Shown here: positions 3,889 through 15,538 of the stretch, one piece after another
Position numbering within the stretch: the first letter of the stretch is position 1
How the letters are laid out: each line of letters opens with the position of its first letter
Translations under genes and position numbers: made by a program
Source: a virus
Taxonomy: Duplodnaviria; Caudoviricetes
DNA length: 64,000 nucleotides
Reading direction: 5' to 3' (one strand)
Virus record (IMG/VR): IMGVR_UViG_3300015214_000026
Coordinates: 32,001 to 96,000 of that record
The notes under the pieces: generated by a model
Seen by the model: the letters and a program-made list of their open reading frames with translations, nothing else
Told to the model about the DNA's origin: nothing
The model's database searches: none

Positions 3889-4968
3889 CTACACCGCAAT
3901 AGGAGCTTTGATAGTATCATGGCTGATATAATCATCTAGTCTAATATCAGACCATTCATAGTTTTTAGGATCATCATAACGATTATTAATAAACAGCTTA
4001 GGAGATTCACCCGCTGAATACCTAGAAAGTTGTTCTTTAGCCTGATCTTCATGGTTTCTATAAAGATGGCAATCTCCAACAGTGTAAACTAGTTCACCGG
4101 GAATCATATTAACAGTATTAGCCATCAAGTGTGTCAAAAGCGCATATTGAGCAATGTTAAAGGGCATTCCTAAATACGCATCATTTGAGCGAATAACAAC
4201 GTGACAATCTAGATATCTTTCTGGAATACCTTCCTCGTCTAGCTTACGCTTGTTTTTACCGGCCATGGAAGAATCGGACATCCATTGTTCATTAAGATCG
4301 TATAGCTCAGAACGATTAAGCCTTTCTTTCATAGAAAGCGGACGTGTATAGAATTGGAATGTATAATGACAAGGAGGCAACCCGGAAGGAATCATTTCTG
4401 GAATATCAGCTACGTTCCAAGCTGAAACAATCATTCTACGTGATTCGGGGGCAGTCTTTAGATCATTAATAACTTGAGCAATCTGGTCAATACCTCCAAT
4501 AGACCAATTTTTATTATGTTCAGCTGTTACTATTTTCCAATTACGCCATTGATATCCATAAACAGGTCCACAATCTCCCCATTTATCCGCAAATAGCTCA
4601 TTCGAACCCCAATCTCGCCCATTAGTACGAATCTTGTTTTCAAAATCCTCTTTAGTAAGAGGAAAATCATGATTTTCAGCATTATATTTCTTTAGGGGCC
4701 AATCAGTCCATATGCTAACACCATTATCCACGAGATACTTGATATTAGTATCTCCCATGAGCATCCACTTTAGCTCATGAAAAATACCTTTAAACCACAC
4801 TTTCTTTGTAGTAATAAGTGGGAATTGGGTTTCCAAATTAGAGAACCTAAGCTGTCTACCGAATAGGCTCCTAGTACCTGTACCAGTCCTATCCCCACGG
4901 ATAGGTGCTTTCAATAGTTCTTCTAGAATAGTATGATACTGCCTATCAACTGGATTTAGCCACGTCAT
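3889..4968 (-). CDS. thyA: thymidylate synthase ThyA
   Basis: DRTGTGT, FPLITTKK, GPVYGYQWR, LPPCH, RSND..LGMPFN, GDCHLY. Confidence 0.97.
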   Translation of the reverse strand: MTWLNPVDRQYHTILEELLKAPIRGDRTGTGTRSLFGRQLRFSNLETQFPLITTKKVWFKGIFHELKWMLMGDTNIKYLVDNGVSIWTDWPLKKYNAENHDFPLTKEDFENKIRTNGRDWGSNELFADKWGDCGPVYGYQWRNWKIVTAEHNKNWSIGGIDQIAQVINDLKTAPESRRMIVSAWNVADIPEMIPSGLPPCHYTFQFYTRPLSMKERLNRSELYDLNEQWMSDSSMAGKNKRKLDEEGIPERYLDCHVVIRSNDAYLGMPFNIAQYALLTHLMANTVNMIPGELVYTVGDCHLYRNHEDQAKEQLSRYSAGESPKLFINNRYDDPKNYEWSDIRLDDYISHDTIKAPIAV

Positions 4969-10872: not shown

Positions 10873-11242
10873 CGAAGTGATCCATTTGTGGTGAAACTTT
10901 TATATTATTTTCATTAAGCTTAAATTCTAAATAACGTATTCTACTTTTTAATATTTTTATTTGTATGTATAGCTTGGTAACTGTATTATTGCGTTCTGCT
11001 AATTCTAATTGTAATCTTCGAGATTCTTCTTGACAACCTGATTTTTCTTTTTCATATTTTTCTATGGTTTGTCTAAAATATTTTTCTATTCGCGTTTCTT
11101 CTGGTTCTTTTTTAGCGCTTATACTAAGTAGAAATTTTAAAAGATGCTTAAGCAGTACAAATAAACCTGTTAGTATAATTGCTATAACAGCTATGCCGTC
11201 TTTTAATAATGGATCGGATATTATTTTTATTAAATCTATCAT
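10865..11242 (-). CDS. TM + coiled-coil protein (holin-like candidate)
   Basis: N-terminal TM, charged coiled coil. Confidence 0.6.
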   Translation of the reverse strand: MIDLIKIISDPLLKDGIAVIAIILTGLFVLLKHLLKFLLSISAKKEPEETRIEKYFRQTIEKYEKEKSGCQEESRRLQLELAERNNTVTKLYIQIKILKSRIRYLEFKLNENNIKVSPQMDHFDD

Positions 11243-11284: not shown

Positions 11285-11599
11285 TTATCTAGAATAAATG
11301 AAACGAATTACAGTGAAAAAATAAAGTCGAACAAATAAAGCAATAATGGTAGCAATTAATAGAAACAAACTGAATATAAAATTGTAATCAATATTTATAA
11401 ATATTGGTTTTGATACTAATAACCACGCACCTACACAGGCTTCTGTTAACCCTTCAATTAAACCTATGTACATGGATTCACGCTTACGCATGTTAGGACG
11501 TATAGATAGCAAGCCTAAAAATAGTAATAGACTGTTTAGTATTATAACTACAGCCGCTATATTTACAAAATACTCTATTATTGAGGTAAATTCTGGCAT
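11285..11599 (-). CDS. three-TM membrane protein (holin candidate)
   Basis: three hydrophobic segments in 104 aa. Confidence 0.6.
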   Translation of the reverse strand: MPEFTSIIEYFVNIAAVVIILNSLLLFLGLLSIRPNMRKRESMYIGLIEGLTEACVGAWLLVSKPIFINIDYNFIFSLFLLIATIIALFVRLYFFTVIRFIYSR

Positions 11600-11667
11600 T
11601 ATCTCTACTCTATCTTTTCATAGAAAAGAATTAGTAAAAAGTAGTATTTCTTGTGGAATAAAGGCAC

Positions 11668-11760
11668 AAAAAAGGGAGGATTTATCCTCCCAAAACTTAA
11701 ATAGATTGAACTTATAAAGTTGGTATATCAGCAACCGCCGGGTACTAAATCATGCACCCC
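11668..11760 (-). ncRNA. candidate ~93-nt small RNA
   Basis: TTGACG-N18-TATAAA promoter (11794-11765), 5' hairpin GGGTGC/GTACCC, terminator GGGAGGA/TCCTCCC + U6, no ORF. Confidence 0.5.
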
Positions 11761-11835
11761 ACAATTTATACAAATTTCATCGTAGAGGCGTCAATAGATA
11801 TTCTTGTTTTGTGGGATGGGTGCTTTCCCGTACAA

Positions 11836-12087
11836 TTAATCCTCTATTTTAACTCGACGAAGTTCGTATCCTAGCATACGATAAGCCATTTGTATTGAAA
11901 CACTTTGTGGATGTTTAACCTTGCTTTTCATCCAGTTATTCAAGGTACTAGAGGATAAACCAGAAACATTTGCTTTTGCGTAGGTACTTCGATTATCCCT
12001 ACGCAAAAGGGTTACAATATCATCCAACATAGGATCAATTTCTGGTTTTTCTGGCTTATTAACAAAGGTTCTCTGCTTTTTAACCAT
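11836..12087 (-). CDS. XRE/Cro-like helix-turn-helix protein
   Basis: STYAKANVSGLSSSTLNNW...KHPQ....MLGYEL. Confidence 0.8.
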   Translation of the reverse strand: MVKKQRTFVNKPEKPEIDPMLDDIVTLLRRDNRSTYAKANVSGLSSSTLNNWMKSKVKHPQSVSIQMAYRMLGYELRRVKIED

Positions 12088-12101
12088 TGTTGCATATTCC
12101 T

Positions 12102-12569
12102 TTATGTTTGTTCAGCTGTGTCTTCACCTAGAATATGTCTTACAATGAAATTTCTAATACGTAATAGACTTTCATTTTGATTCTGCAAATCTACAAGAAT
12201 AATATTTAAACGGTCATTAATTTTAGAAGATTCAACCGATCCATCTTTTTCTTCCGAAGATTCTTTTTCTTCCGAAGATTCGGGCATTCTATCAATTTGT
12301 GATAATAGTTGCGTAATAGTATTAATTGCGTAGTTATTATTATTCGTAATATTGGCAATTCTAGTAGTTAGATCGCAGGTAGACAATGTTTTATGTTTAC
12401 CAACTTTTTTAGATTTAGTTATAGGTAATTTATAACTATACTGATGATCGTCATCATCATCGTCGTCTTCGTTAACCCTGTTAATATAAGCTTTAGATTT
12501 CTTATTGCCCATAGAAATATCCTTTGGTGTCGATCGACTTTTTGTCGGAGCTGTTATTGGTCTAACCAT
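12102..12569 (-). CDS. hypothetical protein
   Basis: 155 aa with an Asp run and a tandem SSEEK repeat. Confidence 0.65.
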   Translation of the reverse strand: MVRPITAPTKSRSTPKDISMGNKKSKAYINRVNEDDDDDDDHQYSYKLPITKSKKVGKHKTLSTCDLTTRIANITNNNNYAINTITQLLSQIDRMPESSEEKESSEEKDGSVESSKINDRLNIILVDLQNQNESLLRIRNFIVRHILGEDTAEQT

Positions 12570-12691
12570 TATCTAGCCTTACCCTGCCCACGGTATGGTT
12601 TCTTCGTATTACGCTTGTTATTTGGTCGGCTGAATGACGAATTACCAATAGAGGTACGATGCTTCTTTGTAATGCCCTTTTTCTGTGCCAT
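12569..12691 (-). CDS. 40-aa basic protein, KKTSIG...YRGQGK type (missed by ORF track)
   Basis: MAQKKGITKKHRTSIGNSSFSRPNNKRNTKKPYRGQGKAR; GAAAGGAAA RBS; TAATG coupling to the next gene. Confidence 0.85.
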   Translation of the reverse strand: MAQKKGITKKHRTSIGNSSFSRPNNKRNTKKPYRGQGKAR

Positions 12692-12854
12692 GTTATTTTC
12701 CTTTCATTGCGCTGTTACTATATTCTATATCCGTTCGCCGGAGTTATCACTTCTGACTATACGATGAAGCACCACGGATAAACAGTATTGTCATTATGAC
12801 CCTTGCAGAATGTAGATAAACCCAACTGCTATCATAATCTAGCTTCAAAGAATC

Positions 12855-12883
12855 TGGTGAACTCGGTGGGGATCGAACCCTCT
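12855..12883 (-). pseudogene. 3' half of a split tRNA (T-arm, acceptor 3' strand, ACCA)
   Basis: GGG TTCGATC CCCAC CGAGTTC A CCA; acceptor strand pairs 7/7 with GAACTCG at 13457-13451. Confidence 0.75.
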
Positions 12884-12903
12884 TTGGATTTCTCCGAGGA
12901 ATT

Positions 12904-12979
12904 TGGTGGGTCCATCGGGATTTGAACCCGAATTTCGGAATTAAAAGTTCCGCACACTAACCAATTGTGTTATGGACCC
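12904..12979 (-). tRNA. tRNA-Lys(UUU)
   Basis: full cloverleaf GGGTCCA...CGGAA CTTTTAA TTCCG...TTCAAAT...TGGACCC ACCA. Confidence 0.93.
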
Positions 12980-12987
12980 AAATCTAT

Positions 12988-13386
12988 TTATAATCTACAC
13001 CAAGCTTTGTGCCCCGCGTAAGATTTAACAGATTTGAAAATCTTACCGCATTTACATCTTTTCCTTATTTTAGGATTAGAAAAACAACCTTCACCATTAA
13101 TTTTAGTTTTCACCTTATGACAAGTTCTGCATCTTAATTCACATTTATTGATTTCTTCCCAAAATCTAAGCTCTGAAAATGAGGAAGCTCTAGCTATTGT
13201 AATAGTTTTAGCCGAAGGGTCAACGTGGTCAAATTCTAATCTTGTTTTTCTAGAACAGTCTACACATTTACCGCCTAAATATTTTATAGCCTCTTTTCTT
13301 CTTTTACGCCATCTTTCCTTCATATAATCATTCATGTATTGATTGTATTTTTCTTTATCTTTAGATGTTTTTGATGTACTAGACAT
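12988..13386 (-). CDS. HNH homing endonuclease (true start probably MSSTS at 13386)
   Basis: YLGGKCVDC, LEFDHVDP, KCELRCRTCH, C-terminal CxC..H...C zinc finger; the upstream in-frame extension overlaps RNA structures. Confidence 0.9.
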   Translation of the reverse strand: MSSTSKTSKDKEKYNQYMNDYMKERWRKRRKEAIKYLGGKCVDCSRKTRLEFDHVDPSAKTITIARASSFSELRFWEEINKCELRCRTCHKVKTKINGEGCFSNPKIRKRCKCGKIFKSVKSYAGHKAWCRL

Positions 13387-13432
13387 TATAACCAATAACC
13401 TTACCCGCCCGGTGAGTATCGCATCCGTAATA

Positions 13433-13457
13433 GCTCTACTAGCTGAGCTACGAGTTC
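13433..13457 (-). pseudogene. 5' half of a split tRNA (acceptor 5' strand + D-arm)
   Basis: GAACTCG TA GCTC AGCTAGTA GAGC = tRNA positions 1-25. Confidence 0.75.
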
Positions 13458-13462
13458 GAGTT

Positions 13463-13894
13463 GTGGAGGGGTTAGGAAAAGCAGGAAACCTAACCCCTCC
13501 ACCAATCGTAGTAAACATTGCCGGCCTTCTCGAAAACATCCGCATGTTAGTTTCGATCGGCCACCTTTGTCTTTCGTCCATGAATGCCATCAATTACGAG
13601 GTTTCATCCATGGCATACTACGATTAACTAGAAGAAGTCGAGGGAACCAGCTTTGATATACTGGCGAGCCACCGAACGGCCTGCTTTACTTGATGAGGGT
13701 TCGGTCAACATCAAGCTATTCCCTCTACATCGCAGCCTCACCCCTTTCAAGCGGGGTAGCTTACTCGACGTATTCTTGTATTAGTTGGGACCAACCTTAC
13801 GTAGTTGGCGGGTCGCTTAGCGTCCTCTTATTCGATGGACAAGATCGAACTATCCCGTACCTATTTTAGTTTCTAGGACATACCTAAATAGGTA
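13463..13894 (-). ncRNA. tiled structured non-coding RNA domains, family unassigned
   Basis: abutting domains closed by inverted repeats: 13463-13502, 13504-13625, 13626-13786, 13787-13856, 13858-13894; GC-richer than flanks; lies between tRNAs. Confidence 0.7.
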
Positions 13895-13904
13895 AATGTG
13901 ATAG

Positions 13905-13981
13905 TGGTGGGAGCGGTCGGGTATGATCCGACATAGATTCCGTTATGAGCGGAAGGCATTCTCCATTTATGCTACACTCCC
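13905..13981 (-). tRNA. tRNA with CAU anticodon, probably Ile2 (lysidine type) rather than Met
   Basis: GGGAGTG...TTCCG CTCATAA CGGAA...GTCGG ATCATAC CCGAC CGCTCCC ACCA; atypical T-loop. Confidence 0.85.
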
Positions 13982-13996
13982 GAAAATTAATTTAGT

Positions 13997-14079
13997 TGGT
14001 GCCCGCTGCCGGACTCGAACCGGCACTCCGAAGAAGAGCATTTTAAGTGCTCCGCGGCTACCATTTACGCCAAGCGGGC
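13997..14079 (-). tRNA. tRNA-Leu(UAA)
   Basis: GCCCGCT...GAGCA CTTAAAA TGCTC, variable arm with UUCG loop, GCCGG TTCGAGT CCGGC, ACCA. Confidence 0.94.
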
Positions 14080-14113
14080 ATCAACTAAATTAATCTTAAG
14101 CGTCTACAAACGA

Positions 14114-14330
14114 AAGGGTGGTAAGATAAATCAGCCTCAGGCGGGGGACACAATTATCTGACTTACCTTACCTACAATCATCCGCGCGGGGGGATGAACG
14201 AATGACTGTATTTTACCCTTCCGCTTCTGCAAGTTACCTCGTATAGAAGCAACTCACAAACTCACAAACGTGTTTAAGACACTCTCGCAAAATATACAAC
14301 ACGTTTGGTTACTCTAGACCATCAGGGTCT
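14114..14330 (-). ncRNA. structured leader / ncRNA upstream of the tRNAs
   Basis: multibranch domain AAGGGT...ACCCTT (14114-14220) plus hairpins GCTTCT/AGAAGC, CAAACGTGTT/AACACGTTTG, AGACC/GGTCT. Confidence 0.55.
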
Positions 14331-14378
14331 GACTTCTCTTTACCGTGGGAAAAATCACTACCCTACTAGTCTACATAT

Positions 14379-14407
14379 AGTATATCCTACTACAAATACC
14401 CTGTCAA
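14379..14407 (-). promoter_or_regulatory. sigma70 promoter for the tRNA/ncRNA cluster
   Basis: TTGACA-N17-TATACT. Confidence 0.88.
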
Positions 14408-14410
14408 CCC

Positions 14411-15538
14411 CTATTTTAGTATCCTTTTGAACCCCATTTGATAGGGTATCTGGAGCAAACGTATACCCGGAGTAGCGTTAAAATCTATAATTACAGGACC
14501 TTTATCAGTTACAGCTATATCGAATCCAATTAACTTGGTGGGTCTGAAAACTTTTGCTGCCTTTTCTACGAAAGAAACAAGATCATCCCAATCAGGTACA
14601 ATTGCTCTTTTTACTTTTAGTTCAGCATTACCAAGATAATCTTTACCTCTATAGGCTGTATTAAACAAATGGCCGTTATCTAGATCGATAGCCACAGCGT
14701 AATTACCGCTTGTATTAAAATTGTCTACCCAATTTAACCCGCGAGATAACTTATACACGGCCCCTACAACGTTTCCTCGCAAAGTAACAAAACGTATGGT
14801 ATTCAAACCTTTGGAATGTCGTGTAAAGGATGGTTTAAATGAAGATTTAACTACCTTTGAAATAAGGTAGTCTTTATCGTTCATACGCTCTTTTAATTCT
14901 TCATATCCCATTTTACCAATAGGTGTTACAAAACTATCGGATAACCTATTATATTTATACGCTAATATTGTGTCGATACCGCCTACACCATCGATAGGTT
15001 TCATGAAGAATGGAGTATAATTAATAAGTTCTTTTTTAGAAATTTCTTGGCTATTAAATGTACCTAAGTCTTCTGTGGCGTGATCGTTACCTAACTTATA
15101 ACGGATCAGTTTATTCGCTAAATCCTTATCATCAAAATGAAGGAATTTCCTATCGTTTAGTTTATTCCATAAATCATACAATTTCAAACCGCTTATATAC
15201 GAATTTTTCTCTCCTTGTGTTTTATTATAAAGCCGGTATTCAAGATATTCATTCGGTGTTATTAAATTGGTTGCCGCCAATTTTGTTGTTTCTTGAATTA
15301 ATTTTACGCGATCTACACTATTAGGAGCTATCTTTTTATAAATTGTTGCTAAAGAAGCATTAGAATCGGGGTCTTCAATCAATAGAAGAAGACTACGTAT
15401 ATTACCTATAATATCTTCTTCAACGGATACTTGAGCTGATTCAGACTTATCTTTATAGGTCTTATATACAAATCTATAGGTATCAGAAGCCCATTTACCT
15501 TGCTTACCAAGAGCAATATCCATAATATCTAACCCCAT
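14411..15538 (-). CDS. ATP-grasp ligase, sugar-transfer-associated (ATPgrasp_ST-like)
   Basis: PNEYLEYRLY, FMKPIDGVGG, LNTIRFVT, VDNF..GNY, IGFDIAVTDKGPVIIDFNATPG. Confidence 0.88.
   Translation of the reverse strand: MGLDIMDIALGKQGKWASDTYRFVYKTYKDKSESAQVSVEEDIIGNIRSLLLLIEDPDSNASLATIYKKIAPNSVDRVKLIQETTKLAATNLITPNEYLEYRLYNKTQGEKNSYISGLKLYDLWNKLNDRKFLHFDDKDLANKLIRYKLGNDHATEDLGTFNSQEISKKELINYTPFFMKPIDGVGGIDTILAYKYNRLSDSFVTPIGKMGYEELKERMNDKDYLISKVVKSSFKPSFTRHSKGLNTIRFVTLRGNVVGAVYKLSRGLNWVDNFNTSGNYAVAIDLDNGHLFNTAYRGKDYLGNAELKVKRAIVPDWDDLVSFVEKAAKVFRPTKLIGFDIAVTDKGPVIIDFNATPGIRLLQIPYQMGFKRILK

Follow-up and report, generated by a model that had tools for sequence, protein, structure and literature searches.

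A probable intron-less homing cassette: an HNH endonuclease gene and a complete tRNA-Lys(UUU) gene nested inside a split phage tRNA gene

Anatomy of the locus

Why should a phage tRNA gene be split into two halves that still match each other, with an HNH endonuclease gene and a second, complete tRNA gene lying between them? The window (the whole stretch of 64,000 nt that was analysed) belongs to a 170-kb virus record of IMG/VR and carries T4-like replication and tail genes, including those for a clamp loader, a family-B-type DNA polymerase and tail fibres. Reading the minus strand directly and using ARAGORN and Rfam, we confirmed the arrangement described in the initial annotation: a tRNA is split around an HNH gene and a complete tRNA-Lys(UUU) gene, and its acceptor strands pair at 7 of 7 positions. 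The split outer gene is referred to below as X0.

Table 1. Features of the locus, in the order of the minus strand. R3 is a related phage described in the text.
Feature	Position	Strand	Basis or remark
Sigma-70-like promoter, TTGACA-17-TATACT, 11/12	14379–14407	-	consensus scan only
tRNA-Leu(UAA)	14079–13997	-	downstream of the promoter
tRNA-Met(CAU)	13981–13905	-	after tRNA-Leu(UAA)
5' half of split outer tRNA (X0)	13432–13457	-	read directly
HNH leader, 45 nt, Shine-Dalgarno-like AAGG	13387–13431	-	replaces outer tRNA positions 27–36
HNH endonuclease gene, 132 aa, intact	12988–13386	-	phrog_4234, motif alignment
Inner tRNA-Lys(UUU), intact, encoded CCA	12904–12979	-	ARAGORN Lys(ttt); Rfam RF00005
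3' half of X0, ends ACCA	12855–12903	-	adjoins inner tRNA 3' end; alignment to R3 tRNA(UUU)

The 5' half of X0 (GAACTCG TA GCTC AGCTAGTA GAGC T) consists of the 5' acceptor strand GAACTCG (13457–13451), U8 and A9, the D-arm (13448–13433) and nucleotide 26. The 3' half opens with the loop nucleotides A37 and A38 (12903–12902) and the 3' strand of the anticodon stem, TTCCT (12901–12897). It continues with a variable arm of 14 nt, C-GGA-GAAA-TCC-AAA (12896–12883; hairpin GGA-GAAA-TCC at 12895–12886), the T-arm GAGGG TTCGATC CCCAC (12882–12866), the acceptor strand CGAGTTC (12865–12859), A73 and CCA (12857–12855). The acceptor pairs (13457–13451 with 12865–12859) are all Watson-Crick, and the D-stem pairs at 4 of 4 positions. 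The flaws noticed earlier in the D-loop and T-stem are also real: A stands in place of G18, and the T-stem forms 4 of 5 pairs, with an A50-A64 mismatch.

The genomes of the window phage and of two relatives were scanned permissively for a T-arm followed by a 3' acceptor strand for which a 7-mer able to pair with it, together with a D-arm, lay no more than 2.5 kb upstream. Many weak matches were obtained; the combination of A-CCA with a 4/4 GCTC/GAGC D-stem occurred only in true tRNAs, in the X0 pair and in one pair of the related phage G001. Since nothing else passed, chance pairing of the X0 halves is excluded. The split gene was called neither by ARAGORN in intron mode (introns of 0–900 nt) nor by the Rfam covariance models.

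The inner tRNA-Lys(UUU) has a canonical cloverleaf (RF00005, 71.5 bits, E 7.5e-15, against a cut-off of 29) and begins 8 nt after the HNH stop codon. The best PHROG match of the HNH open reading frame is the HNH endonuclease family phrog_4234 (E 6e-21). When the protein is aligned with four relatives, the motif CxxC...LEFDHVDP...CxxCH is conserved without change; the protein also has a C-terminal Cys/His tail. The Pfam HNH match is weak (16.9 bits, below the cut-off), and a PDB sequence search returned no close solved structure. Judged from its sequence, the window HNH is an intact free-standing nuclease gene outside any self-splicing intron or intein, and its activity is predicted. A longer frame of 201 aa, which extends across the 5' half of X0, is an artefact of the ORF caller, because the homologues in L180, L182 and L183 (60–65% identity) start at a methionine equivalent to 13386. 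The leader of the gene matched no Rfam family.

An Rfam search of positions 11500–15500 at E values up to 5 returned only three tRNAs and no ribozyme, whether group I (RF00028), group II or other. As a positive control, the same search detected group I introns at 88–90 bits in the related contigs L049 and L051. No further tRNA encloses the X0 bracket, which is flanked by a conserved hairpin upstream and by unstructured sequence downstream. In the minimum-free-energy fold of the 603 nt, the acceptor stem was closed and the T-arm was not formed; the fold was no better than those of shuffled sequences (z = -1.6).

The promoter probably drives one transcript comprising tRNA-Leu, tRNA-Met, a structured RNA and the split tRNA with its HNH and tRNA-Lys genes; no terminator-like sites were seen between it and position 12855. 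The T-loop of the tRNA-Met(CAU), GGATCATACCC, is odd in lacking TTC, and the gene reaches no more than 50 bits. Between this gene and X0 lie approximately 440 nt of structured non-coding RNA with a 12-bp hairpin at its end. The part just 5' of X0 (13465–13623, minus strand) is conserved in R3 (L044 10222–10402); it is closed by CGTAGTA...TACTACG, followed by the 12-bp hairpin, shows compensatory changes in 7 of its 44 predicted pairs and matches no Rfam family. Elsewhere in the window, a 344-aa open reading frame at 16614–17648 matches the PHROG 'transposase' family phrog_4285 (6e-37).

Identity of the split outer tRNA

The relative R3 (L044, IMGVR_UViG_3300028603_000022 and L173 are the same phage) has a clamp loader 79% identical to that of the window phage and an intact tRNA of 86 nt with the anticodon UUU and a 14-nt variable arm (L044 10667–10752). 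A 1570-bp contig identical to the window occurs in the sample that yielded R3 (JGI 3300028603). The 3' half of X0 aligned without gaps to positions 38–86 of this tRNA, beginning at A37, with 38 of 49 nucleotides identical. The differences include a compensated pair in the variable-arm hairpin (GGC/GCC against GGA/TCC) and two compensated pairs in the acceptor stem. The GGA-GAAA-UCC hairpin is thus the variable arm of X0 itself, so that only about positions 27–36 are missing. These results change the initial annotation in two respects. It had the anticodon and variable arms replaced, and of this the loss of positions 27–36 stands whereas the variable arm is present; and it had limited the 3' half to 12883–12855, which leaves out the part from A37 onwards.

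Since positions 27–36, anticodon included, are absent and there is no ribozyme, X0 is dead as a tRNA. Together with the kinship of its 3' half to the tRNA(UUU) family, this supports the earlier proposal that the cassette destroys the outer tRNA at the anticodon arm. In-silico joining of the two halves gave 952 products, 4 of which were called by ARAGORN, none with U33 or a canonical loop. Neither a bulge-helix-bulge nor a complementary leader/trailer helix, both features of archaeal split tRNAs, was found at the junctions of X0.

X0 probably once belonged to a Lys(UUU) family with an unusually long variable arm, as its alignment to the R3 tRNA suggests. The lysine identity is probable rather than certain, because an 18-nt stretch of the 3' half is also present in a metagenomic tRNA-Leu(UAA). 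X0 combines a D-arm like that of class I tRNAs with a class-II-like variable arm in its 3' half; with the 18-nt match, this means that X0 may be a recombinant mosaic. The R3 tRNA itself has an unusual shape among lysine tRNAs: its variable arm is class-II-like (GGC-GAAA-GCC), its D-stem has 3 bp and it carries U73. Its anticodon and variable arms resemble those of a metagenomic tRNA-Leu(UAA) (L130).

No uninterrupted allele of X0 was found by exact scans with the 5' half and the 3' half in IMG/VR and in metagenome contigs. A degenerate scan with the variable-arm motif returned 120 stretches, and the 80 loci checked contained only one tRNA, a tRNA-Leu(UAA). BLAST of the locus against cultured phages gave generic tRNA-Leu matches only, and when only the halves were used, the matches did not point to one isotype (Lys, Val, Arg, Phe and Met). 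In four related phage lineages there is no intact outer gene at the X0 locus, and tRNA-Lys, where present, is always nested. A search for related loci with the neighbouring ATP-grasp gene returned none, and an alignment of clamp loaders added no further lineage.

Nested HNH and tRNA genes in other lineages

A homologue search with the HNH protein covered 5.8 billion proteins, and the closest matches lay on short contigs from three other lineages (L180/L181, L182 and L183/L184; 60–65% amino acid identity to the window protein and 68–70% to one another). In all three, a tRNA-Lys(UUU) gene starts at or overlaps the HNH stop codon. Pairing tRNA halves bracket the two genes in two of the three. In L180/L181, a 5' half GGGGGTG TA GCTC AGTTGGTA GAG faces a 3' half GTGGG ATCGAGC CCCAC CGCCCCC A, and the acceptor stem pairs at 7 of 7 positions, with one G-U. 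In L183/L184, the 5' half is cut short (AGGGGCG TA GCTC AG), the 3' half reads GTGGG TTCGACT CCCAC CGCCCCC A, and 6 of 7 positions pair. L182 has a tRNA-Gln on the 5' flank and no half there; its contig ends within tRNA-Lys, and pairing is not applicable.

The initial annotation had proposed finding the uninterrupted allele in related phages and reading its anticodon. Since no unbroken X0 allele was found, this check was carried out on the homologous L181/L183 bracket: IMG/VR was scanned with its acceptor stem, the start of its D-stem and its T-stem fixed, and with the middle, including the anticodon, left free. The intact form was present in two contigs and is a tRNA-Lys(UUU) in both, an answer that concerns this bracket rather than X0 itself. 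The two contigs are large phage contigs in which two different tRNA-Lys(UUU) genes stand in tandem, 2 nt apart (L185 4113–4263 and L186 275–425), the second of them, at 4190–4263 in L185, being the intact form of the bracket.

The sequences of L183 and L184 match at 100% from the point where the shorter contig begins up to and including the final nucleotide of the 3' half. Immediately beyond it follow a 134-nt indel (L183 724–857 against L184 555–557) and then sequence of 96.9% identity. An identical tract ending at the bracket fits a recent conversion tract and hints at recent mobility. In more distantly related members of the HNH family, the gene lies 0–10 nt upstream of a tRNA-Glu or tRNA-Trp gene, or overlaps it; in L031 the order is tRNA-Trp, HNH gene and orphan 3' tRNA half.

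The nested layout recurs with three unrelated HNH genes at no fewer than six loci. Three relatives of the window phage have it with HNH_3 cassettes that are unrelated to the window HNH. The phage G001, whose clamp loader is 54% identical, has two such loci, each in the order 5' half, intact tRNA, HNH_3 gene and 3' half. At the locus with tRNA-Lys(UUU) the acceptor strands GGGTGCT and AGCACCC pair at 7 of 7 positions; at the locus with tRNA-Met(CAU), GGGCTTG and CAGGCCC do so with one G-U. In R3, the intact tRNA(UUU) and a frameshifted HNH_3 gene are nested inside another split tRNA, the 5' half of which retains TGGAA CTTTT, a Lys anticodon loop. The frameshift in this HNH_3 gene (L044 10813–11385) lies at an A-run near 11229 and fits a homing endonuclease gene decaying after fixation. 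The Lys cassettes of G001 and R3 have the same left junction (anticodon loop to position 36, TTT, inner tRNA). Their spacer hairpins are homologous and their HNH_3 proteins are orthologous, yet the outer and inner tRNA sequences differ.

HNH_3 homologues of approximately 40% identity also lie inside the group I introns of L049 and L051, at position 36/37 of a tRNA(CAU) (RF00028, 88–90 bits). These introns are genuine, as in-silico removal of the 754-nt insert gives a canonical tRNA(CAU). L046 carries tRNA-Leu, HNH_3 and an orphan 3' half, L048 carries tRNA-Lys(UUU) and HNH_3 without halves in a unit orthologous to the G001 cassette, and G002 has neither cassette nor tRNA-Lys. In L048 (a contig of GCA_016294905.1), hammerhead-ribozyme candidates at 1513–1571 and 2557–2617 flank the unit; their cores are complete, their scores (29 and 29.5 bits) are below the Rfam cut-offs, and the second begins 2 nt past the HNH_3 stop codon. 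In the Agrobacterium phage Atu_ph07 (L042 2001–2125; MF403008.1, approximately 68156–68280), a tRNA-Lys-like gene that is unannotated and was not called by ARAGORN has an insert of approximately 48 nt after CTTT in its anticodon loop; a group I intron would need more length than this.

Interpretation and relation to known systems

We consider it probable that the locus is an intron-less homing cassette, made of the HNH gene and the intact tRNA-Lys(UUU), that replaces the tRNA it breaks. The mobile unit would be the HNH gene fused to the tRNA-Lys(UUU) gene, sitting in the anticodon arm of a resident Lys(UUU)-family tRNA gene. Its insertion would have removed positions 27–36, so that the outer gene could no longer make a tRNA, and the outer pieces would persist as slowly decaying remnants; the phage would retain a working tRNA-Lys(UUU) because the cassette supplies one. 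During co-infection, the HNH nuclease would cut the unbroken tRNA-Lys genes of related phages. Repair would then copy the cassette from the donor, and the insertion would destroy the cut site. The tRNA-Lys sequence of the cassette may be different enough to escape cutting. The whole region would be transcribed from the promoter in Table 1, and normal tRNA processing would free the inner tRNA.

Of the earlier proposal of a homing cassette with a replacement tRNA, the parts that gained ground are the conservation of the HNH/tRNA-Lys(UUU) unit in three lineages, its bracketing in two and the identity of the intact bracket as tRNA-Lys(UUU). The insertion into X0 is something that we infer and have not seen, since no unbroken allele of X0 was found. 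The simplest account of the tRNA-linked HNH genes in these phages is that they are homing elements targeting tRNA genes, some of which live in self-splicing introns, and others of which, including that of the window, instead bring along a complete tRNA of the species concerned, while the gene that they invaded stays broken.

Two features of the brackets also fit a different account. Comparison of the outer halves in the window with those in R3 gives one fully compensated pair (5-68, T-A against C-G), and acceptor pairing is kept at 6–7 of 7 positions across all brackets, which selection on pairing would also yield. The two halves could then be a selected, tRNA-shaped bracket belonging to the mobile element, whose pairing lets RNase P and the 3' maturation enzymes excise and stabilise the HNH message. 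Six brackets of differing sequence keep the pairing (7/7, 7/7, 7/7, 6/7, 7/7 and 6/7). Despite their homologous HNH genes, the brackets of the window and L181 differ by four fully compensated pairs. The 3' half always adjoins the end of the cassette, and the hammerhead candidate of L048 and the group I core of L049 and L051 occupy the same position after HNH_3; some RNA-processing element therefore always follows the nuclease gene, be it a tRNA 3' half, a hammerhead candidate or a group I core. The acceptor stem is closed in the predicted fold, and no related phage retains an unbroken outer gene.

Against this bracket, which the initial annotation had offered as its alternative, the fold does not exceed shuffles and lacks the T-arm. 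Every bracket is defective whereas the inner tRNAs are canonical: in addition to the flaws of X0, relaxed selection shows in R3 as a G-G mismatch of the acceptor stem, in L181 as A54, and in L183 as A1-C72 with a truncated D-arm. Moreover, the 5' half is truncated inside the D-arm at the second G001 locus and in L183, and is absent in L031, L046, L182 and L048; 3' halves are orphaned in L031 and L046. The alternative is weakened because the 5' half is truncated or absent in homologous cassettes. The remnants of anticodon stem, loop and variable arm differ in extent and resemble leftovers of real tRNAs, not a designed shell. These leftovers, the defects in every bracket, the variably cut back or missing 5' half, and the lack of a ribozyme and of RtcB- and Rnl2-type ligases favour a broken remnant over a functional bracket, and we hold the processing bracket to be unlikely. 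A more specific form of it, which we rate a little lower still, is that the halves are a selected shell of the mobile element that pairs across approximately 600 nt to recruit RNase P and the tRNA 3'-end machinery, which would free the nuclease message and its passenger tRNA from the transcript of the tRNA operon; in the anticodon loop of another tRNA, such a shell could allow protein-only 'splicing' in bacteria.

The mixture of a class-I-type D-arm and a class-II-like variable arm in X0 suggests mosaicism, and the tRNA clusters of these phages are hypervariable. Tandem tRNAs might thus have been rearranged in a recombination-prone cluster without homing, the HNH gene being there by happenstance and the halves stemming from different tRNAs or pairing by chance. 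This is improbable: 7/7 Watson-Crick pairing with a canonical D-arm and T-arm was unique in the genome scan, the nested layout recurs with unrelated HNH genes as described above, and the HNH and tRNA-Lys genes are tightly linked across lineages. It is very improbable that X0 still yields a working tRNA whose giant intervening sequence is taken out of the RNA, either through self-splicing or through cleavage at the inner tRNA's termini and subsequent ligation. In favour of this, the 3' junction coincides exactly with loop position 36/37, where tRNA introns classically lie and where homologues of the relatives' HNH_3 genes occupy real group I introns, and the inner tRNA abuts the 3' exon in the window and starts 3 nt past the 5' exon in G001 and R3. 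Against it, positions 27–36 are absent, no junction restores a canonical anticodon arm, no ribozyme of any class was found, and searches of the phage for RtcB and Rnl2-type ligases returned none (that for T4 Rnl1 had no valid control).

The locus, read as a homing cassette, has several partial counterparts. SegB of T4/T6 is a free-standing homing endonuclease in a phage tRNA cluster (PMC2330249; PMC13096335). Like the window HNH, it is a nuclease encoded among phage tRNA genes and outside introns, and its spread has been attributed to cleavage of the tRNA region in related phages, into which it is then copied with its flanks. SegB, however, is a GIY-YIG enzyme encoded between intact tRNA genes. 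In the window, the nuclease is of the HNH type, its gene is joined to a tRNA gene, and the two together interrupt a further tRNA gene, of which both halves are left.

Group I introns carrying HNH genes are known in bacterial tRNA-Leu(UAA), tRNA-fMet and tRNA-Ile(CAU). In tRNA group I introns such as those of L049 and L051, as in the window, the anticodon loop is broken at 36/37 by an element encoding a homing endonuclease; unlike them, the window element has no ribozyme, the outer tRNA has lost some of its sequence, and function is regained through another gene instead of through splicing.

Insertions of homing endonuclease genes also split protein genes without splicing, giving 'fractured genes' (PMC2677866). 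There, as in the window, a selfish nuclease gene interrupts a gene of use to its host, which manages although neither an intron nor an intein takes the nuclease ORF out; the two products of a fractured gene reassemble, however, whereas in the window the split gene is apparently abandoned and a complete spare copy supplied. In Aeromonas phage Aeh1, mobE is reportedly inserted in nrdA in this way. Split and permuted tRNA genes are found in Nanoarchaeum and other archaea (PMC4090602). As in X0, their halves are encoded apart and have complementary acceptor strands, but they hold the full tRNA sequence and a bulge-helix-bulge for the splicing endonuclease, whereas X0 lacks ten nucleotides, including the anticodon, and lies in a bacteriophage. 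No description of a nuclease and a replacement tRNA nested in a split tRNA was found in full-text literature searches. Such brackets are invisible in databases because standard tRNA finders and annotators miss them.

Homing endonuclease genes are considered to persist within essential genes only if an intron or intein keeps them out of the final product. The locus and its relatives point to a third way for RNA genes, in which the selfish element, having broken the gene, supplies a complete spare for that tRNA species. If true, this would explain the fast turnover of phage tRNA clusters, the unrelated tRNA-Lys(UUU) sequences in related phages and the origin of orphan tRNA fragments. Host anticodon nucleases classically attack tRNA-Lys(UUU), so that, on this reading, the nuclease-driven spread of fresh tRNA-Lys alleles could also matter for how phages counter this defence.
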